Source of the DNA: Pristiophorus japonicus
Taxonomy: Eukaryota
DNA length: 64,000 bases
Assembly: GCF_044704955.1 (NCBI RefSeq)
Contig: NC_091981.1
Span: forward strand, 148,676,001 to 148,740,000
Direction of reading: 5' to 3'
Position numbers and translations under genes: made by a program. Shown one piece after another: positions 8,661 to 49,234 of this stretch. The stretch's first letter is position 1. Each line of letters begins with the position of its first letter. Below the pieces are notes generated by a model, which saw only the letters and a list, made by a program, of their open reading frames with translations, did not search any database and was not told where the DNA came from.

Positions 8661-9650
8661 GCACTATGGAATCTTTACGTCCACCTGAGTGGGCAGACTC
8701 AGTTTAATGTCTCATGTGGAAGATGACAAGGCAGCACTCCTTCATTACTGCACTGAAATGTGTGAAAATGTCTGTGGAGCAGTGCTTAAATTACAACCTT
8801 CTGACTCAGAGGAAAGAGTACTATCACTGAGAAAAGATCGATACTTTAATGATGGACAGTGTGGTGGAGAGACAGAGCGGTTTAAGGAGAGAATTCCAGT
8901 GTGTGAGGCCTAGACAGGTGACAGCATGACTGCCAATCATGGGTGCAGAGAGGAGAGTCCAGAGTTAGAGGAATGGAGAATGGGACAATGCAGGATAGGA
9001 TATAAGCAGCAAAGTTTTGGATGAGCTGAAATTTACTGCGTATGGAGGATGGGAGACACAAAAGGAGGGCATTGGAATAACTGAGTCTGGAAGTGGCAAC
9101 GGTGTGGATGAAAGTTTCAGTGGCAGATGGACTGTGGTGGGGTGGACCGAGGCAACGTTATAGAGGTGAAAATAAGCAATCTCTATGATGGAAAGGATAT
9201 GGGATTGGAAGCTCATCTCAGTATCGAACAGAACGTCAATGTTGCGAACAACTTGGTTTGGCATGAGACAGGGGCCAAGCAGTGGGGCTGGAGTAAAGAG
9301 TTGGTGCCAAATCTCTCCCACAAACTCCTGCCTCCTTATGACCCACCATGTAAATACAGTAACCAGTGTATTTAAAAAAAAATGTCCTTGAGATGTGAAC
9401 AAAACTGGCAAGCCAGTACTTAATTCCCATCATTGGTTGCCCCGATGGGATTTGAACTCACAATTTGCCATGGTGGGATTCAAACTTACAACCTCTATGT
9501 TACTAGTCCAGTACTATATCCACTAGGCTACTGCACTGTACTGTACTAGAGAGTCATATAGATCAGGTAGGTCCCAGGTTTGATCCAGGTCTGTACGAAG
9601 TTAACTGATTTCAGCTGGGGGAGAAAAAAAAAATCATTCAGGGCCCTCAC

Positions 9651-11057
9651 AACTTGGGGGGTGCCAGGACCGCCCTCCGGGAGCTGCCTGTCTTTTACAG
9701 GGAACTCATCAGGGTCTGGAACAAAGTCTCCACCAAGCGCAGCTCTCCGCCGGCTGGAGTGGCGGCCGTCCTGCAGGAGCCGCTGCTCGGGAATCCGTAC
9801 CTCCACGGCCAAGGTTTTATGTGGCGGTCGGAAGAGAGGGCTGTGGCTGGTGAGGTGACCAGGGTCAGGGACCTGCTCGATGGCGGAGGAGCGGGCTGGA
9901 TGGCGCCAGTCACGCTGGCGCGGCGCCTAAATTCTGCCAACGTCCGCCACGCGGCCGATGCCATCGAGTCGCTAAAAACAGCTCTGGGCCCTGACTCCGT
10001 TAGGTGTATCGAGGAGGCTCAGGCACGTGGGGAGATCCCGTCCGAACTGACCCCCGTCCGGACGGAATTCCTCATCGGCGCCAAACCCCGGAACCTCCCT
10101 CGGGGGCCGGCGCCTCACAACTTGAGCCGCCTCGGGGAAATCCCCTCCGTGCCTTTCAGTTCCGCGCGGAGGGGTTTCCTGTACGGGCTGCTCCTGCACA
10201 CCCTCAACTTTGCCATCCTCGCCGGCCGTCCGGACACGCCATGGCGTACCATCTTGCCGTCCGGAGGAGGCGGGGGTCCCCGATGGAGGGCACTCTACGC
10301 AGGGGTCCTCCCACTATTCATCGGGGACTTGGCCTGGAGGGTGGTGCACGGAGCAGTGCCGTGCAATAAATTTTTAAGCCGGTTCACGGACTCCCAGGCC
10401 GCCTGCAATTTCTGCGGTCTGGAGGAGTCCGTGTTCCATGTTTTTATTGAATGCACGAGGTTGCAGCCCCTGTTCCACTATTTGAAGGGGCTGCTCCTGA
10501 AATTCTGGCTGCACTTCAGTCCCACTCTCCTGATCTTTGGGCACCCTGTGCGGAGGGGAGCGGGTAGGTCCGAAGGCCTCCTCGTAGGACTGCTCCTGGG
10601 CACGGCCAAGGGTGCCATCAGCCGGTCCAGGCAGCGGGCGGTCGAGGGGGTCGTTCAACCTGACTGCCTGCCTCTCTTCCGCTCTTACATCCGGTCCAGG
10701 GTGTCCTTGGAGATGGAGCACGCGGTGTCCACCGGTACGCTCGCGGCCTTCCGCGAGAGGTGGGCACCGGAGGGACTGGAGTGCATCATCACGCCCGGCA
10801 ACCAAATTTTAATTTGATTTTACGTTTTAAAGTTTAATTTGTTTTAATTGCAGGTGCTTTTAGTGTCCCCCTTCCCTTTTATAGGGGGCACTGGGGAAAA
10901 TTGTGATTTTAGTGCCCAAAAAAAACCCAAAAAAAAACAAAACACAAAAAAAACAAAAAAGGGGGGAAAAAAAGGGCCTTGTAAATGTCTGGAGTGTCAC
11001 CCAGGTCGGGTGGCACCGTTTAATGTCTTTATGTTTTGCAGGTAAACTCAAAAGAGT
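9651..11057 (+). mobile_element. 5'-truncated Tx1-clade non-LTR retrotransposon with 14-bp TSD
   Basis: TSD TTCAGGGCCCTCAC at 9637-9650 and 11058-11071. The 3' UTR has GGGGCACT/AGTGTCCCC motifs and ends CAAAAGAGT. Confidence 0.9.
9654..10817 (+). CDS. Tx1-like ORF2 C-terminal part (387 codons open) with zf-RVT/CCHC knuckle; lacks RT and endonuclease
   Basis: DLAWRVVHGAVP...CNFCGLEESVFHVFIEC motif. No stops or frameshifts, GC- and CpG-rich, so a young copy. Confidence 0.85.
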   Translation: MGGARTALRELPVFYRELIRVWNKVSTKRSSPPAGVAAVLQEPLLGNPYLHGQGFMWRSEERAVAGEVTRVRDLLDGGGAGWMAPVTLARRLNSANVRHAADAIESLKTALGPDSVRCIEEAQARGEIPSELTPVRTEFLIGAKPRNLPRGPAPHNLSRLGEIPSVPFSSARRGFLYGLLLHTLNFAILAGRPDTPWRTILPSGGGGGPRWRALYAGVLPLFIGDLAWRVVHGAVPCNKFLSRFTDSQAACNFCGLEESVFHVFIECTRLQPLFHYLKGLLLKFWLHFSPTLLIFGHPVRRGAGRSEGLLVGLLLGTAKGAISRSRQRAVEGVVQPDCLPLFRSYIRSRVSLEMEHAVSTGTLAAFRERWAPEGLECIITPGNQILI

Positions 11058-11473
11058 TTCAGGGCCCTCACTCTTGAACACTATCCACTGACCCCTAGTT
11101 GCAATGTCAGAAGATTGTATCAGTAGCGATACTTCCCCCAGTTGAATAGCTTGATGACAACTCCTGTTTAATGTCACTCATGAAAAATAGTTACTTGAAC
11201 AAGCTTTTAGGTCCCATAGAAGTGTATCATTTCAGCAACTTCAGATGGGAGGGGAGAAAGTAGAGGGGAAAATGCAGTCACTATGTTACAATCCTTAATC
11301 ATCCAGTACAAAAGTCGTCACTTTTCATTTGAGTCGTGACATGGAGTCTGTAAGTGTCCCAACTGTCAACAGCTAATAGCTTACAAGCAGACCTAAAACT
11401 ATCCCATAAAGTACGCAATATACACAATAGAAATGTAACAGGTACTTTTAAAACAGTGCTTTTAAAAGGCATA

Positions 11474-13724: not shown

Positions 13725-14400
13725 CCCCCACCCACAAGGTCTCGGATTCCCGCCTCTGGCCTTCTGACGCCACCCCCCCCCCCCCCACCCCTCCCACACA
13801 CAAGGTCTCCGATTCTTCCCTCTGGCCTTCTGAGCTCCCTCCCCCACCCCTCCTGCCCACAAGGTCTCCGATCCCCCTGTCTGGCCTTCTGACCCCCCCC
13901 ACCCCTCCCGCCCACAAGGTCTCCGATTCTTCCCTCTGGCCTTCTGAGCCCCCACCTCCACCCCTTCCTCCACAAGGATTCTGATCCCTCCTCTGGCCTT
14001 CTGACCCCCCGCCCACCCCTCCCGCCCACAAGGTCTCCGATTCTTCCCTCTGGCCTTCTGAGCCCCCCCCCCCACCCCTCCTGCCCACAAGGTCTCCGAT
14101 CCCCCTGTCTGGCCTTCTGACCCCCCCCACCCCTCCCGCCCACAAGGTCTCCGATCCATCCTCTGGCTTTCTGACCCATGCACTCCTCCCACCCACAAGG
14201 TCTCCGATCCCCCCTCCGGCCCTCTGACCACCCACACATCACCCCCCCCTTCTCCAAGGCCTCCAATTCCCCCTCCGGCCTTCTGACCTCCCACGCCCCC
14301 ACAACCTCCGATCCCCCCTCCGACCTTCTGACTCCCCCTGTCCACGGTCTCAGATCCTCTTTCTGGCCTTCCAATCTTCGATCCCCAGCCTGCGAGCCCT
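13725..14400. repeat. C-rich minisatellite, about 12 units of ~45-65 bp, core CAAGGTCTCCGAT...TCTGGCCTTCTGA
   Basis: Directly visible tandem units. They explain the overlapping Gly/Pro-rich ORFs in the ORF track. Confidence 0.95.
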
Positions 14401-16212: not shown

Positions 16213-16455
16213 CCCGCCTTTCCCTTTGTAATAAAGATGAACAAACCATTTGCTTTCCTAATTGCTTGCTGTACCTGCATGTTAACTTTCTGTGATTTGT
16301 GTACAAGCACACACAAATCCCTCTGAACACCAAAATTCTTTCGCCATTTCAAAAATATTGTACTTTTCTATTTTTCCTACCAAAGTGGATATCTTCACAT
16401 TTCTCCATATTATATTCCATCTGCCATTTTCTTGCCCACTCGCTTAACCTGTCTA

Positions 16456-17052
16456 AGAACATAAGAACATAAGAATTAGGAACAGGAGTAGGCCATCGGG
16501 CCCCTCGAGCCTGCTTCGCCATTCAAAAAGATCATGGTTGATCTGGCCGTGGACTCAGCTCCACTTACCCGCCCGCTCCCCATAACCCTTAATTCCCTTA
16601 TTGGTTAAAAATCTATCTATCTGTGATTTGAATACATTCAATGAGCTAGCCTCAACTGCTTCCTTGGGCAGAGAATTCCACAGATTCACAACCCTCTGGG
16701 AGAAGAAATTCCTTCTCAACTCGGTTTTAAATTGGCTCCCCCGTATTTTGAGGCTGTGCCCCCTAGTTCTAGTCTCCACGACCAGTGGAAACAACCTCTC
16801 TGCCTCTATCTTGTCTATCCCTTTCATTATTTTAAATGTTTCTATAAGATCACCCCTCATCCTTCTGAACTCCAACGAATAAAGACCCAGTCTACTCAAT
16901 CTATCATCATAAGGTAACCCCCTCATCTCCGGAATCAGCCTAGTGAATCGTCTCTGTACCCCCTCCATGGCTAGTATATCATTCCTTAAGTAAGGTGATT
17001 AAAACTGCTCGCAGTATTCGAGGTGCGGCCTTACCAATACCCTGTACAGTTG
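16456..17052 (-). mobile_element. Young CR1 3' end, (TTCTTATG)n-tail family
   Basis: ORF EGVQRRFTRLIP...RTRGHSLK...FFSQRVVNLWNSLP. Nearly identical to 26862-27460. Confidence 0.95.
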
Positions 17053-17068
17053 CCTTTGCAGCCACTTT

Positions 17069-26861: not shown

Positions 26862-29495
26862 ACATAAGAACATAAGAACATAAGAATTAGGAACAGGAGT
26901 AGGCCATCTAACCCCTTGAGCCTGCTCCGCCATTCAAAAAGATCATGGCTGATCTGGCCGTGGACTCAACTCCACTTACCCGCCCGCTCCCCATAACTCT
27001 TAATTCCCTTATTGGTTAAAAATCTATCTATCTGTGACTTGAATACATTCAATGAGCTAGCCTCAACTGCTTCCTTGGGCAGAGAATTCCACAGATTCAC
27101 AACCCTCTGGGAGAAGAAATTCCTTCTCAACTCGGTTTTAAATTGGCTCCCCCTTATTTTGAGGCTGTGCCCCCTAGTTCTAGTCTCCCCGACCAATGGA
27201 AACAACCTCTCTGCCTCTATCTTGTCTATCCCTTTCATTATTTTAAATGTTTCTATAAGATCACCCCTCATCCTTCTGAACTCCAACGAGTAAAGACCCA
27301 GTCTACTCAATCTGTCATCATAAGGTAACCCCCTCATCTCCGGAATCAGCCTAGTGAATCGTCTCTGTACCCCCTCCAAAGCTAGTATATCCTTCCTTAA
27401 GTAAGGTGACCACAACTGTATGCAGCACTCCAGGTGCGGCCTCACCAATACCCTGCCCAATTGCAGCAGGACCTGCTTTTGTACTCCATCCCTCTCGCAA
27501 AGAAGGCCAACATTCCACTCGCCTTCCTGGTTACCTGCTGCACCTGCAAACTAACTTTTTGGGATTCATGCACAAGGACCCCCAGGTCCCTCTGCACCGC
27601 AGCATGTTGTAATTTCTCCCCATTCAAATAATGTTCCCTTTTGCTGTTTTTTTTTCCAAGGTGAATGACCTCACATTTTCCAACATTGTATTCCATCTGC
27701 CAAACCTTCGCCCATTCGCTTAACCTATCCAAATCTCTTTGCAGCCTCTCTGTGTCCTCTACACAACCCGCTTTCCCACCAATCTTTGTGCCATCTGCAA
27801 ATTTTGTTACACTACACTCTGTCCCCTCTTCCAGGTCATCTATGTATATTGTAAACAGTTGTGATCCCAGCACTGATCCCTGTAGCACACCACTAACCAC
27901 CGATTTCCAACCCGAAAAGGATCCATTTATCCCGACTCTCTGCTTTCTGTTAGCCAGCCAATTCTCAATCCATGCTAATACATTTCCTCTGACTCCGTGT
28001 ACCTTTATCTTCTGCAGTAACCTTTTGTGTGGCACTTTATCGAATGCCTTTTGGAAATCTAAATACACCACATCCATCGGTACACCTCTATCCACCATGC
28101 TCTCTATATCCTCAAAGAATTCCAGTAAATTAGTTAAACATGATTTCCCCTTCATGAATCCATGTTGCGTCTGCTTGATTGCACTATTCCTATCCAGATG
28201 TCCCGCTATTTCTTCCTTAATGATAGCTTCAAGCATTTTCCCCACTACAGATGTTAAACTAACTGGCCTATAGTTACCTGCCTTTTGTCTGCCCCCTTTT
28301 TTAAACAGAGGCGTTACATTAGCTGCTTTCCAATCCGCTGGTACCTCCCCAGAGTCCAGAGAATTTTGGTAGATTATAACGAATGCATCTGCTATAACTT
28401 CCGCCATCTCTTTTAATACCCTGGGATGCATTTCATCAGGACCAGGGGATTTGTCTACCTTGAGTCCCATTAGCCTGTCCAGCACTACCCCACTAATGAT
28501 AGTGATTGTCTCAAGGTCCTCCCTTCCCACATTCCCGTGACCAGCAATTTTTGGCATGGTTTTTGTGTCTTCCACTGTGAAGACTGAAGCAAAATAATTG
28601 TTTAAGGTCTCAGCCATTTTCACATTTCCCATTATTAAATCCCCCTTCTCATCTTCTAAGGGACCAACGTTTACTTTCGTCACTCTTTTCCATTTTATAT
28701 GTCGGTAAAAGCTTTTACTATCTGTTTTTATGTTTTGCGCAAGTTTACTTTCGTAATCTATCTTTCCTTTCTTTATTGCTTTCTTAGTCATTCTTTGCTG
28801 TCGTTTAAAATTTTACCAATCTTCTAGTTTCCCAATAACCTTAGCCACCTTATATGCATTGGTTTTTAATTTGATACTCTCCTTTATTTCCTTGGTTATC
28901 CACGGCTGGTTATCCCTTCTCTTACTACCCTTCTTTTTCACTGGAATATATTTTTGTTGAGCACTATGAAAGAGCTCCTTTAAAGTCCTCCACTGTTCCT
29001 CAATTGTGTCACCATTTAGTCTGTGTTCCCAGTCTACTTCAGCCAACCCTGCCCTCATCCCACTCTAGTCCCCTTTATTTAAGCATAGTACGCTCGTTGA
29101 GACACTACTTCCTCACCCTCAATCTGTATTACAAATTCAACCATACTGTGATCACTCACTCCGAGAGGATCTTTTACTAGGAGATCGTTTATTATTCCTG
29201 ACTCATTACACAGGACCAGATCTAAGATAGCTTGCTCCTTTGTAGGTTCTGTTACATACTATTCTAAGAAACAATCCCGTATGCATTCTATGAATTCCTC
29301 CTCCAGGCTACCCCGTGCGATTTGATTTGATCAATCGATATGTAGGTTAAAATCCCCCATGATTACTGCCGTTCCTTTTTCACATGCCTCCATTATTCCC
29401 TTGATTATTGTCCGCCCCACCGTGAAGTTATTATTTGGGGGCCTATAAACTACACCCACCAGTGACTTTTTCCCCTTACTACCTCTAATCACCAC
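26862..29495 (-). mobile_element. Longest CR1 copy: part of endonuclease, RT and 3' tail
   Basis: 449-aa ORF 27442-28791 with RT motifs, in which FADD has become FADG. Upstream sequence encodes VIMGDFN (APE domain). Frameshifts present. Confidence 0.95.
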
Positions 29496-39003: not shown

Positions 39004-39155
39004 TCCTAAAAGCAAACACATTATGAATATTGTGGACTTCATTTCCATCACAATAAGAATATTTAATATAGAAATGGAAAACCATTTCTATATTAAATAT
39101 TCTTATTGTGATGGAAATGAAGTCCAAAATATTCATAACGTGTTTGCTTTTAGGA
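39004..39155. repeat. 152-bp near-perfect palindrome (74-bp arms, AAAA loop)
   Basis: 39004-39077 is the reverse complement of 39082-39155 with 2 mismatches. Confidence 0.95.
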
Positions 39156-39214: not shown

Positions 39215-39480
39215 GCTCCCTCGATAGATCAGTTGATAAAAGCAGAGTGCAGCTGATCCATACAAGTCAGATTTAGTCCCTGGTCTGTACTGAGTTAACT
39301 CATCTCAGCAAGGGTAGCAATGGGAATGCTATTGATAGCTTCAACACCACTGATCACTGCCCATTGATATCCGCTAGAAATGTACAAAAGTAGGCACTTC
39401 AGGAGGACAGGATGTCCCTGTGGTCGATGCTAACACTGACTACCCAGGCTTAAATATAACGGGAAGAGCAGTCATTTGGT
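39215..39480 (+). mobile_element. Degraded AmnSINE2-like SINE
   Basis: CCCTGGTCTGTACTGAGTTAACTCATCTCAGC head, as at 9580-9615. Confidence 0.55.
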
Positions 39481-43930: not shown

Positions 43931-44104
43931 TAGTGAGCCTAAGCCAGAACAAGTTGGCTGCTAGGAGTGATCACATGATAGTAACAAATGCAGCTGCATC
44001 AATCTAGCGCCCTGCAATCCCAGCACACGATGGAGCTTCTGGCCTGGGCTCGATAGGTATTGAATTCATTGTAATGTATGCACCTGTGAGTATGCTCACA
44101 GGTT

Positions 44105-47100
44105 AAAAAACAGGAACTCATCAGGGTCTGGAACAGAGTCGCCACCAAGCGCAGCTGTCCACCGGCTGGAGTGGCGGCTGTCCTGTAGGAGCCGCTGCTC
44201 AGGAATCCGTACCTCCACGACCAAGTTTTAGGTGGCAGGCGGATGAGAGGGCTGTGGTTGGCGAGGTGACCAGGGTCAGGGACCTGCTCGATGGCGGAGG
44301 AGCGGGCTGGATGGCACCAGACGAGCTGGCACGGCGCCTAAACTGGGCCGATGTCCGCCCCGCGGCCAATGCCATCGAGTCGCTAAAAACAGCTCTGGGC
44401 CCTGACTCCGTTAGGTGTGTCGAGGAGGCTCAAGCACGTGGGGAGATCCCGTCCGAACTGACCCCCGTCCAGACGGAATTCCTCATCGGCGCCAAACCCC
44501 GGAACCTCCCTCAGGAGCCGGTGCCTCACAACTTGAGCCGCCTCAGGGAAATCCCCTCCGTGCCTTTCAGTTCTGCGCGGAGGGGTTGCCTGTACGGGTT
44601 GCTCCTGCACACTCTCCAGCTTGCCATCCTCGTCTGCCGTCCAGACACGCCATGGTGCACCATCTTGCCGCCGGAGGAGGGGGGTGCACTCTACACGGGA
44701 GTCCTTCCACTATTTATTGGGGACTTGGCCTGGAGGATGGTGCATGGAGCAGTCCCGTGCAACAAATTTTTAAGTCGGATCACGGGCTCCCAGGCCGCCT
44801 GCAATTTCTGCGGTCTGGAAGAGTCTGTGTTCCATGTTTTTATAGAATGTGCGAGGTTGTAGCCCCTGTTCCATTATTTAAAGGGGCTACTCGTCAAATT
44901 CTGGCTGCACTTCAGTCCCACACTCCTGATCTTTGGGCACCCAGTGCGGAGGGGAGAGGGTAGGTCCAAGGGCCTCCTCGTAGGACTGCTCCTGGGCACG
45001 GCCAAGGGTGCCATCAGCCAGTCCAGGCAGCGGGCAGTCAAGGGGGTCGTTCAGCGCGACTGCTTGCCTCTCTTCTGTGCGTACATCCGCGCCAGGGTGT
45101 CCCTGGAGATGGAGCACGCGGTGTTCACTGGTACGCTCACGGCCTTCTGCGAGAGATGGGCGCCGGAGGGACTGGAGTGCATTATTACCCCCGACAATCA
45201 AATTTTAATTTGATTTTATATGTTTTAGTGTTTAATTTGTTTTTATTGCCGGTTTTAGTGTCCCCCATCTTTCAGCCAGGGGGCACTTGTAAAATTTATG
45301 TTTTTAGTGCCCAAAAAACCCCCCCAAAAAAAACAAAAAAACAAAAAAAATCACAAAAAAAGGGCACTTGAAAAGTGTTTGGAGTGTCCCCCAGATCAGG
45401 GGGCACTTGATTTAATTGATTTATTGTTTCACAGCCAAAAGTGTTGTAGAGCTGTTGCACTTGAAAAATGTTTGGAGTGTCCCCACCAAAGGGGGCACTT
45501 GATTTAATTGGTTAATCATTTACAACCAAAAGAGTTGTAGAGCTGTTGGATGAGAGGGGACCTCATAGAAACATATAAAATTCTGACGGGGTTAGACAGG
45601 TTAGATGCAGGAAGAATGTTCCCAATGTTGGGGAAGTCCAGAACCAGGGGTCACAGTCTAAGGATAAGGGGTAAGCCATTTAGGACCGAGATGCGGAGGA
45701 ACTTCTTCACCCAGAGAGTGGTGAACCTGTGGAATTCTCTACCACAGAAAGTTGTTGAGGCCAATTCACTAAATACATTCAAAAAGGAGTTAGATGAGGT
45801 CCTTACTGCTAGGGGGATCAAGGGGTATGGCGCGAAAGCAGGAATGGGGTACTGAAGTTGAATGTTCAGCCATGAACTCATTGAATGGCGGTGCAGGCTA
45901 GAAGGGCCGAATGGCCTACTCCTGCACCTATTTTCTATGTTTCTATGTTTCTATAAGGGCACTTGTAAACTGTTTGGAGTGTCCCCCCCCCTTTAATAAG
46001 GGGTCACTTCATTTAATGTTTATATTTTGTTTTGCAACGAAGAAGTTGTAGAACTGTTGGGTAAGGGCACTTGTAAACTGTTTGGAGTGTCCCCTCCCAC
46101 CCCCCCTTTAATAAGAGGGCACTTGATTTAATGTTTATTTTTGTTTTGCAACAAAAGAGTTGTGGAGCTGCTGGGGTGTCCCTGGAGATGGAGCACGCGG
46201 TGTCCACTGGTACGCTCGCGGCTTTCCGCGAGAGGTGGGCATACATCATCACCCCCGGCAACCAAATTTTAATTTGATTTTATATGTTTTAAGTTTAATT
46301 GGTTTATTGTGCCAGTTTTAGTGTCCCCCTCTCCTTTTAGCCAGGGGGCACTTGCATAATTTGTGGTTTTAGTGCCCCCAAAAAACAAACAAAAAAAAAA
46401 AACCCTCCCCAAAAAAACACAAAAAAGGGCACTTGAAAACTGTTTGGAGTGTCCCCCCATGCCACTCCCCCCCTAACCCCCCCCCCCCCCACCGCTTTTA
46501 ATCAGGGGGCACTTGAACTAATCGTTTAATTTGTTTCACAACAAAATAGTTCTGGAGCTGTTGGAGTGCCTTTGGAGATGGAGCACGCGGTGTCCTCCGG
46601 TACGCTCGCGACCTTCCGCGAGAGGTGGGCGCCAGAGGGACTGGAGTGCATCATCACCCCCGGCAAGCAAATTTTAATTTGATCGTAATGGCTAAAGTTT
46701 AATTTGTTTAAGTTGTCGGTTTTATTGCCCCCACCGCCCTGTTAGCCGGGGGCACTTGTATAACTTGTGTTTTAGTACCCTCAAAAAAAAACCCTAAAAA
46801 AACAACGGGGCACTTGATTTAATGATTGTTTTAAGATTACAACAAAATAGTTGTAGAGCTGTTTTGCCTGGAGGGTGTTGCACGGAGCAGTCCTGTACAA
46901 TAAGTTTTTAAGTCGGTTCACGGGCTCCCAGGCCGCCTGTAATTTCTGCGGTCTGGAAGAGTCCGTGTACCACGTATTTATTAAATGTGCGATGTTGCAG
47001 CCCCTCTTCCAATAGTTGAAGGGGCTGCTCCTCAAATTCTGGTTGCACTTCAGTCCCCACACTCCAGATCTTTGGGCACCCTGTGAGGAGCGGAGTGGGC

Positions 47101-48172
47101 AGGTTGGAATGCCTCGTCGAAGGACTGCTCCTGGGTATGGCCAAGGGGGCCATCAGCCGGTCCAGGCAGCGGGTGGTCAAGGGGGTCATTTAGCCCGACT
47201 GCCGGCCTCTCTTCCGCGGTTACATCTGAGCTAGGGTGTCCCTGGAGATGGAGCACGCGGTGTCCACCAGTATGCTCGTGGCCTTCCTCAAGAGGTGGGC
47301 GCCGGAGGAACTGGAGTGCATCATCACACCCGGCAACCAAATTTTAATTTAATCCTTAATGTTTAAAGTTTAATTTTTCTATGCTTGTTGGTTTTAGTGC
47401 CTCCCCCCCCCCTTTTTAGCCAGGGGACACTTGTATAATTTGTGTTTTTGTACCCTCAAGCAAGGGGGCACTTGAAAGTTCTTTGGAGTGTGCCCCCCTC
47501 CCCCGCCCTCCCTTTAATCAGGGGGCACTTGATTATTAGTTTACAACAAAATAGTGGTAAAGCTGTTCCGCCTGGAGGGTGTTGCACGGAGCTGCCCTGC
47601 GCAATAAGTTTTTAAGTCGGTTCACAGATTCCCAGGCCGCCTGCAATTTCTGCGGCCTGGAGGAGTCCGTGTTCCATGTTTATGTTGTATGTGTGAGATT
47701 GCAGCCCCTCTTCCAATATTTGAAGGGGCTGCTCCTCAAATTCTGGTTGCACTTCAGTCCCACGCTCCTGATCTTTGGGCACCCTGTGCAGAGGGAAGCG
47801 GACAGGTCAGAAGGGCTCCTCATAGGACTGCTCCTGGGCATGGCCAAGGTGGCCATCAACCGGGTCCATGCAGCAGGCGGTCAAGGGAGTCATTGAGCCC
47901 GACTGCCTGCCTCTCTTCCGCGGTTACATCTGTGTCAGGGTGTCCCTGGAGATGGAGCACGTGATGTCCACCGCTATGCTTGTGGCTTTCCGGGACAGGA
48001 CGGACTGGATGCACCATCACCCCTGGCAACCAAATTTAAATTTGATCCACTAATCTCTAAAATGTAATTTGTTTAAGTTTGTTGGTTTCAGTGCCCCCTT
48101 TTTAATCAGGGGCCACTTGATTTACAGGTGCAACTTAAAATAGTTGTAGAGCTGTTGATTAAAATTAAAATA
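44105..48172 (+). mobile_element. Head-to-tail array of nine 5'-truncated Tx1-clade insertions separated by a 15-bp target duplication
   Basis: Copies of GTTGTAGAGCTGTTG (0-3 mismatches) start at 45443, 45534, 46045, 46159, 46549, 46850, 47554, 48143 and 48173. Each is preceded by the A-rich Tx1 3' end (typically CAA(C)AAAAGA or AAAATA). Unit bodies match 9651-11057. Confidence 0.9.
45549..45953 (+). mobile_element. CR1 3' end inside the Tx1 array
   Basis: MRGDLIETYKILTGLDRLDAGRMFP...GMGY* and (TTTCTATG)n tail. Confidence 0.95.
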
Positions 48173-49234
48173 GTTGTAAAGATGTTGAATTGGGAGTGGC
48201 TTAGCCAGTCATGTGATATTCATAAGACTCAATAAAACCCCAGTCAGATGAGTTTAGGGGATCCACTATGAGGCATACGGTTGTGAGCCTAGTGTATGAA
48301 CTGGTAATGTGTAGTGTGATTGTTAATTAACCAAATAGTTCTTAATAGCAATGTGTTGCTATGAATTCTTAAGTAAAGAACCCATGAAGCAAATACATTA
48401 CATGCACAAACAACATTATACCAGAACTAGGTCTTGGAAGGACATCAGCGTCACTGAGACAAGTGTCACTGCAATCTTCGAAGGCTCTATGGTGCAGTCG
48501 CAGTGCAATCTCCTAACCTCCTGGCAGTGAGGTACCATCACATGGGAGTAAATGGTCAGGTTTATACGCGAGAAGAGCTTTTAGCACAAGAGGTAGACAT
48601 GGTGATAAAAAACAGTATGAAGAGACTATCTAGAAAAAGCTTTGGCAAATTGGTGTGTGTGTGCGTGCATGTTGTGAGTTACTGATTTGTATCAGATCTT
48701 ATTCCCACTACTAATTTTTGTCTCACAAAAATTTGGAGGGTTTTGCAGCCAGATCTTTAGTTGCTGCAATTATAATTGTGAAAAAGGATATTTCTCTGTG
48801 GAAGACAAAGAAGATAGTGAAATCAGGGATGCAAGGCAGGTCAGATTGCATAGAAACATACTGTCCCTAATCCTCTGTCCCTTTCAGAAGTTGCTAGGTT
48901 CACACTGAAACTAATTATAACATTTTCCACATTTGGAAGCTTTAAAGTAAGGATGGTTGAAACACACAAGAATTCTGTAAAGGATAATCCATTGTAAGCA
49001 GTTAATACCTAATAGCAGAGAATGGAGAGCTTAGATTATAGTTTGCTTACCAATGAACACAGAATAGATATTGAGCAAAAATGAGTAAGGGTAGTCATTT
49101 TTGTTGCTGTTGACAATGTACAACATACATTAAATGCAGTAAACATGAATTAATTGTAGTAGTTCTGAATGAGCCCTTAGATCCATGGCTAAGTAAATAC
49201 CACCTAAGTACATCATGCTCACATGATGAATAAT

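Follow-up and report, generated by a model that had tools for sequence, protein, structure and literature searches.

A long stack of Tx1-type LINE 3' ends in an LTR-like element of Pristiophorus japonicus

The stack and its host element

The window, a 64,000-nucleotide stretch of Pristiophorus japonicus contig NC_091981.1, is rich in decayed LINEs overall. It contains eight 3' ends of a Tx1-type LINE (U1–U8; 78 to 1,340 bp) and a 17-bp stub (U9), arranged head to tail on the plus strand with nine target copies between. All units are 5'-truncated and end at a common 3' end, and target copies of 12–13 bp separate them. The Tx1 stack almost certainly sits in a native site of an LTR.

The host is a solo-LTR-like element on the plus strand. 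Its left part (44070..44104) starts with TGTAATGTAT; its right part lies, together with target copy 9 (11/13), at 48175..48402, carries AATAAA at 48231, and ends with ATACATTACA. Once the insertions are removed, the element is 263 bp long (44070–48402) and is a common repeat. The public contigs used here come from four of five listed runs, three of one sample and one of another study. Tallies are taken from the best-supported matches, so that joints, differences, and loose ends are lower bounds, and contig depth is not taken as copy number. About 980–1017 contigs per DNA run or more have loose ends before 44070, and at least 905–961 have loose ends behind 48402, indicating that 48402 is the right end of the LTR.

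The features of a solo LTR are present, namely TG..CA ends, short inverted termini (the element start at 44070 pairs with 48393–48402 over 10 bp), AATAAA, and dispersed copies with sharp ends. When a 4–6-bp target duplication was looked for, the flanks TTCAT and TGCAC agreed at 3/5 positions. No internal gag-pol region tied to the LTR is present in the window, and the collection scans yielded no true LTR copy: an 18-base LTR pattern had no match among viral contigs, and the five matches of a second pattern to metagenome contigs (18–29 bases each) were all chance. The host element may instead be a non-autonomous DNA transposon. The flanks of LTR copies at 44070 and 48402 show a weak mirror consensus, with ..GGCAGC before and GCTG/GTTG.. 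after the element (agreement 0.32–0.38), hinting that the LTR itself has a palindromic insertion preference.

The target lies 35 bp into the LTR. Other LTR copies continue after 44104 as T-GTAGAGCTGTTG-AATTG (agreement 0.63–0.65, with 649–716 contigs in each of three runs from one sample), and 44104 is joined to 48183 or 48194 in at least 23–24 plus 9–10 contigs per DNA run. The empty site in these contigs reads CAGG-TT-TGTAGAGCTGTTG. The 649–716 contigs match through a palindrome immediately upstream and then continue into the empty site, indicating that palindrome and target are native to the LTR, that many LTR copies are empty, and that the native upstream sequence is GG-TTT rather than G-TT. 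Many LTR copies with an intact target have thus remained empty.

U1 (44105..45444) has five extra A residues at its 5' junction, lacks a left duplication, and contains two stops and five indels. It is followed by a perfect target copy 1 (45445..45457; 13/13). U2 (45458..45535) is a 78-bp end of the Tx1 3' UTR and is followed by target copy 2 (45536..45548; 13/13). The 3' end of an unrelated abundant LINE, presumably of CR1 type (45549..45954; 406 bp; plus strand), is 84.8–88.4% identical to three other copies in the window. Its first base directly follows target copy 2, it abuts U3, and no duplication of its own is seen; it could stem from a template switch during a single insertion or have been inserted there later. 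U3 (45955..46046) is a 3' UTR end as well and precedes target copy 3 (46047..46059; 12/13). U4 (46060..46160) has the same 5' start as U3, after three extra bases, and precedes target copy 4 (46161..46173; 11/13), which has one change in common with target copy 5 (46551..46563; 11/13). Between these two copies, U5 (46174..46550) is the unit nearest to a young Tx1 copy at 9651 (5/104 coding bases differ) and has a 15-bp deletion.

The 5' start of U6 (46564..46851) equals that of U5 within 2 nt, and its 3' UTR is different. Target copy 6 (46852..46863), with its first 12 bases intact, separates U6 from U7 (46864..47555; three stops and one indel). After target copy 7 (47556..47567; 10/12 of the first 12 bases), U8 (47568..48144) shares the 5' start of U7; it is the most decayed unit and has one stop and three indels. 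Target copy 8 (48145..48157; 13/13) is followed by the stub U9 (48158..48174), which belongs to a 27-nt direct repeat (89%) and is probably a local duplication of the U8 end. With three perfect target copies and a fourth intact over 12 bases, three or four intact targets are still in the array. At several unit 3' ends (e.g. 45405–45444), a weak 5–7-bp stem stops 4–6 bases before the target, probably an RNA signal for priming.

The palindrome, the left junction, and the copy at 9651

By sequence comparison, the units end in the C-terminus of a Tx1-type ORF2. The C-terminal 390 residues match proteins of 1,088–1,300 residues (E 1e-20 to 1e-27) in which endonuclease and RT domains are present, and one homologue cluster is named 'transposon TX1 uncharacterized 149 kDa protein'. 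A zf-RVT match (E 2.5e-5) stays under the Pfam cut-off. The Tx1 copies in the window have no RT domain. An extended homologue search gave no match, and a protein-led locus search in prokaryote genomes gave none. In viral contigs, the protein-led search gave one weak match (25% identity, 69% GC), which was not used.

The comparison copy is a younger, 5'-truncated Tx1 end on the plus strand at 9651–11057 (9637..11071 with its perfect 14-bp duplications, 9637–9650 and 11058–11071). Taken for an intact ORF in the original prediction, it retains only about 390 C-terminal residues of an ORF2 of about 1,300 residues, without endonuclease or RT. It is young, with one private amino-acid change in 156 codons, and sits outside any LTR. 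In one register, chosen by us, its duplication is identical to the LTR target at 6/13 positions and agrees at 11/13 by purine/pyrimidine, a level equalled by 0.6% of the 13-mers in the window. Upstream, it differs from the LTR flank and has no hairpin (z 0.55). If this copy and the array use a similar enzyme, the comparison suggests that insertion specificity lies mainly within the duplicated bases. The extreme 3' end of the 9651 copy differs from those of the array units, and the copy may use a different endonuclease. Its surroundings (9540–9636) are a decayed dispersed repeat, which we take to be SINE-like, 79% identical over 42 bases to 39279–39320.

The 20-bp palindrome that had been predicted beside the target is present at 44083–44102 and extends to perfect 9-bp arms (44082–44090 and 44095–44103; the whole, 44082..44103, has no strand) around a 4-nt loop. 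The 20-mer occurs once in the window (0 expected, 100 shuffles) and is native to the LTR, starting 12 bases inside it. Folded as DNA, it reaches -9.3 kcal/mol (z -4.4), and 0/200 shuffles fold equally well. Six stems of this size are observed across the window, as compared with a mean of 1.65 (range 0–5) in 20 shuffles; the palindrome is therefore real, yet not extraordinary. It is retained in hundreds of LTR copies. Its end lies 1–2 bases from the nick site inferred below; the idea that it ends on the first G of the target motif does not hold, as the empty site in other LTR copies reads GG-TTT before GTAG. The palindrome core (44088–44097) agrees at 9/10 positions with the p53-family half-site pattern RRRCWWGYYY and is a candidate host-factor site; no second half-site was seen near it by eye. 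Rfam has no match in the whole window.

At the left junction of the array, the target duplication is absent, as predicted. The GTT thought to be its surviving remnant is mostly the LINE's own 3' end: GTT precedes each motif in the array, and the 9651 copy ends likewise before a different duplication. With AGT taken as the last bases of the element, the duplicated stretch is the 13-mer TGTAGAGCTGTTG, and the break at the left falls exactly at the inferred nick, a position that may shift by one or two bases because of microhomology. U1 looks like an insertion without target duplication, an outcome described for SINEU-2 insertions in the parts of Kojima 2015 covered (PMC4494074). The contigs show at least 14 differences in U1 that are nearly fixed among the 40 best-supported of 509 entries, a subset that was not used to measure age.

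Among the 12 best-supported of 734 entries, there are at least two further LTR junctions occupied by Tx1. One matches through 44104 and keeps the left duplication. The other, in a contig of run X5 from another study (44098 joined to 47896), has two changes in the right arm of the palindrome and a 4-base gap in the duplication; the damage to the right arm could be later than the insertion. A target-to-Tx1 junction, 45548 to 47896, recurs in at least 5–8 contigs. In a contig of depth 164–299 (about 10 for the listed pieces), a LINE tail is joined to Tx1 near the U5/U6 start (45954 to 47236), indicating that this start recurs elsewhere.

Ages and 5' starts of the units

U2–U4, which contain no coding DNA, were excluded from the age tests, and the stub U9 was excluded from both alignments and age tests. 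Over the 92–117 bases common to the five coding units, the distances to the 9651 copy are 0.049 (U5), 0.068 (U6), 0.085 (U7), 0.103 (U1), and 0.142 (U8). Over the 475–486 bases common to three units, the distances are 0.099 (U1), 0.119 (U7), and 0.133 (U8). The leftmost unit had been expected to be closest to the 9651 copy; the longer comparison gives the order U1, U7, U8 in agreement, but the shorter one places U5 nearest.

Private amino-acid changes per 156 codons number 10 in U1, 11 in U7, and 17 in U8 (U1 vs U8, p 0.25), and the count for U1 may overstate its age because it includes the subfamily branch, U7 and U8 being relatives. CpG decay is 7/19, 10/25, and 14/22, respectively (p 0.12). 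Over 91 common sites, there are 6 private changes in U1, 1 in U5, 4 in U6, 2 in U7, and 8 in U8. At 77 conserved residues (153/155 homologues aligned), changes are found at 1/69 in U1, 2/41 in U7, 2/40 in U8, 1/5 in U5, and 0/5 in U6. Lesions per 100 bases amount to 0.63 in U1 (over 1,105 bases), 0.82 in U7, and 0.84 in U8 (p 0.62). The rank correlation between age and position is positive (0.3–0.6) and not significant (p 0.28–0.62). None of the age contrasts between units is significant (p 0.12–1.0), including U5 vs U1 (p 0.13–0.21).

All array units are much older than the 9651 copy, and U8 is probably the oldest unit. The data do not establish a left-to-right age gradient in this array. Decay is greatest in U8, but U1 and U7 are changed to a similar degree, U5 and U6 are the least changed, and nothing reaches significance.

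Three of the seven adjacent pairs (U3/U4, U5/U6, and U7/U8) have the same 5' start in the element within 2 nt, which has a probability of 3e-4 to 0.03 if each pair matches with a probability of 0.02–0.1. The proximal UTR differs by 33% between U5 and U6 and by 21% between U7 and U8, indicating that the pairs are not plain duplicates. The common starts do not lie at the bases of RNA stems: in one predicted fold, 0/3 are within 3 nt of a helix start (background 20%), and neither are the 5' starts of U1 and U2. The common starts may reflect hot spots, a short non-autonomous family, unequal exchange, or neighbour-templated joining. In each case, about five of the 5' ends in the array are independent, and the eight units do not simply list eight events. 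We consider it unlikely that the 5' ends were copied from the right-hand neighbour with the palindrome irrelevant, and very improbable that the palindrome is a leader confining Tx1 to the adjacent site while each new cDNA often borrows the previous unit's 5' end by pairing.

Reuse of the target

The array is one more case of a Tx1 family parking in another mobile element; the behaviour is known, and the stack is unusually long. In the parts of Kojima 2015 covered (PMC4494074), Tx1 families (crocodilian Tx1-8_Crp and Tx1-4_AMi; Tx1-Mar; also SINEU-3) are described that prefer specific LTR retrotransposons, LTR targeting being assigned when >20% of copies are flanked by the target repeat. As in our array, tandem insertions there sandwich the target duplication and are read as sequential, and insertions show target duplication, truncation, or no change. 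The host and the target sequence are different, and here there are eight or nine units; insertion order and an upstream palindrome are not discussed in those parts. Xenopus Tx1L likewise uses an APE-type endonuclease with a specific site inside a mobile element, Tx1D, but that target is a DNA transposon, about 10 bp are recognised, and no palindrome is mentioned in the sections covered (PMC1950540, PMC1919474).

In Drosophila R1 arrays and TE dimers, according to the covered parts of McGurk and Barbash (10.1101/158386), insertion similarly preserves the target and makes a new one, and dimers can then expand via unequal exchange, a general route to arrays. Six of 10 jockey dimers in that work have clearly different 5' ends, whereas three adjacent pairs in our array share starts and differ in their 3' UTRs. 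Trypanosome ingi/RIME/SIDER tandems are also separated by only a 12-bp duplication, and the upstream consensus read by their endonuclease is the best precedent for left-biased growth; they belong to another clade, however, and the upstream signal in the sections covered is a short degenerate motif with no palindrome (PMC3820030). In the literature covered, to which subscription papers and Repbase do not belong, neither this element nor a polarity that depends on a palindrome is the subject of any paper found. The order of tandem Alu insertions has reportedly been treated by El-Sawy and Deininger in 2005.

We put at about even chances that the array grew at any junction with some copying between units. 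A Tx1-clade LINE would insert by target-primed reverse transcription at a short site within a very common LTR. Its endonuclease would nick the bottom strand at about GGTT/TGTAG, and of the ten or so bases that it reads round this nick, most would fall within the duplicated part. With a top-strand cut about 13 bases further, each insertion would leave two targets. The LINE's own end (..AGT) would partly restore the upstream context. As targets multiplied, so would insertions, both at the left and at internal junctions. Some units would have taken their 5' ends from a neighbour, by homology-guided joining or unequal exchange, and U1 would have entered the leftmost site without duplication. The palindrome would be an LTR feature, probably bound by a factor, and the overlap of its right arm with the upstream flank would be a positional coincidence. 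The array may have stopped long ago simply because no further events occurred at the site, and need not be locked.

Growth at any junction is favoured by the change that target copies 4 and 5, flanking U5, share and copies 3 and 6 lack, although such sharing arises by chance in 23% of simulations, and by the fewest private changes being in U5 (1/91). It is also favoured by the number of units. With rates equal, treating all junctions as targets makes eight insertions 10^4 times more likely than allowing a single target does (3e-7 vs 1e-11 at an assumed occupancy of 15%; 4e-3 vs 7e-7 at an assumed 50%), an argument that unequal rates among loci would weaken. The three pairs with common 5' starts speak for the copying. 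The 9651 duplication resembles the LTR target with no hairpin upstream, but the different 3' end of that copy leaves room for a different endonuclease. In the parts of the Tx1L studies covered, a duplex with seven flanking bases per side lets the endonuclease find its site (PMC1950540), and about 10 bp are read (PMC1919474). Against growth at any junction, the array is a single locus, agreement of the regenerated junctions with the native upstream flank is limited to 1–2 bases beside the nick, and U8 is the most decayed unit and the sole duplication-free junction is leftmost, as growth from the left only predicts. Growth from the left only, in any form, is possible but in our view less likely than not. 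Its form in which the enzyme needs 5–10 native bases upstream of the nick, i.e. the right arm of the palindrome as plain sequence, strikes us as somewhat unlikely; only the leftmost site would then be good, and the array would be roughly chronological and ended by the blunt insertion of U1. In its favour, beyond the decay of U8, U7 is less decayed than U8 and U5 less than U6, the changes at conserved residues number 1/69 in U1, 2/41 in U7, and 2/40 in U8, the missing leftmost duplication gives a rough likelihood ratio of 1.4–12, and the ingi-clade consensus extends 10 bases upstream of the nick in the sections covered (PMC3820030). Neighbouring units are alike (permutation p 0.008, 8 units), but the effect falls to p 0.14–0.24 once two look-alike pairs are each reduced to a single unit. 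Against this form, neither private changes nor CpG decay make U1 younger than U5, U6, or U7, the rank tests give p 0.28–0.62, a change is shared around U5, a single-target array of eight is very improbable at equal rates, and the upstream flank of the 9651 copy differs. It seems highly unlikely that the palindrome as such (a hairpin, cruciform, or dimer site) must be present for cleavage and serves as a leader. The stem is stable and real, its end lies within 1–2 bases of the inferred nick, and hundreds of LTR copies retain it, but the 9651 insertion has no upstream hairpin, the occupied contig of run X5 has two right-arm changes (possibly post-insertion), and the isolated Tx1L endonuclease needs short flanks only, with the string 'palindrom' absent from the covered parts of both papers on it (PMC1950540, PMC1919474). 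The right arm is within the reach of about 10 bp or seven bases and could therefore be read as plain sequence, like ingi-clade upstream motifs; the left arm, by our analysis, would lie beyond the reach reported for the Tx1L endonuclease.

That recombination made most of the array, starting from four or five genuine insertions that unequal exchange between units doubled or that were copied together with the LTR, is in our view quite unlikely. The common starts of U3/U4, U5/U6, and U7/U8 fit this, as do 13 informative sites common to U7 and U8 (3 for other groupings), the resemblance of U9 to a local duplication, and the recurrence of the 45548-to-47896 junction; but the first 46–47 UTR bases differ by the 33% and 21% given above, and no stop or frameshift is common to U7 and U8. 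Growth from the right only, requiring the downstream LTR flank, is hardly credible: target copies 7 and 9 share one change, but the intervening copy 8 lacks it, and U8 is the most decayed unit.

The high-copy LTR provides many natural replicates in which to ask on which side a duplicated target is used again and in what way LINE 5' junctions close. If polarity or neighbour-templated 5' ends hold genome-wide, such arrays would allow LINE subfamilies to be dated with no need for a molecular clock and would bear on second-strand resolution, a poorly understood step. If leader and 5' borrowing were both true, the arrays across thousands of LTR copies would record Tx1 subfamily activity in order, each closed by a blunt insertion.

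Other features of the window include an inverted repeat with 74-bp arms (39004–39155; 97% complementary, 4-nt spacer), probably a small foldback element or an inverted duplication, and a C-rich minisatellite (13777–14292; unit 59 bp, about 9 copies). Two LINE fragments, 16454–17053 and 26865–27464, are 95% identical and form the youngest pair of their family in the window, and an open RT frame spans 27442–28812.
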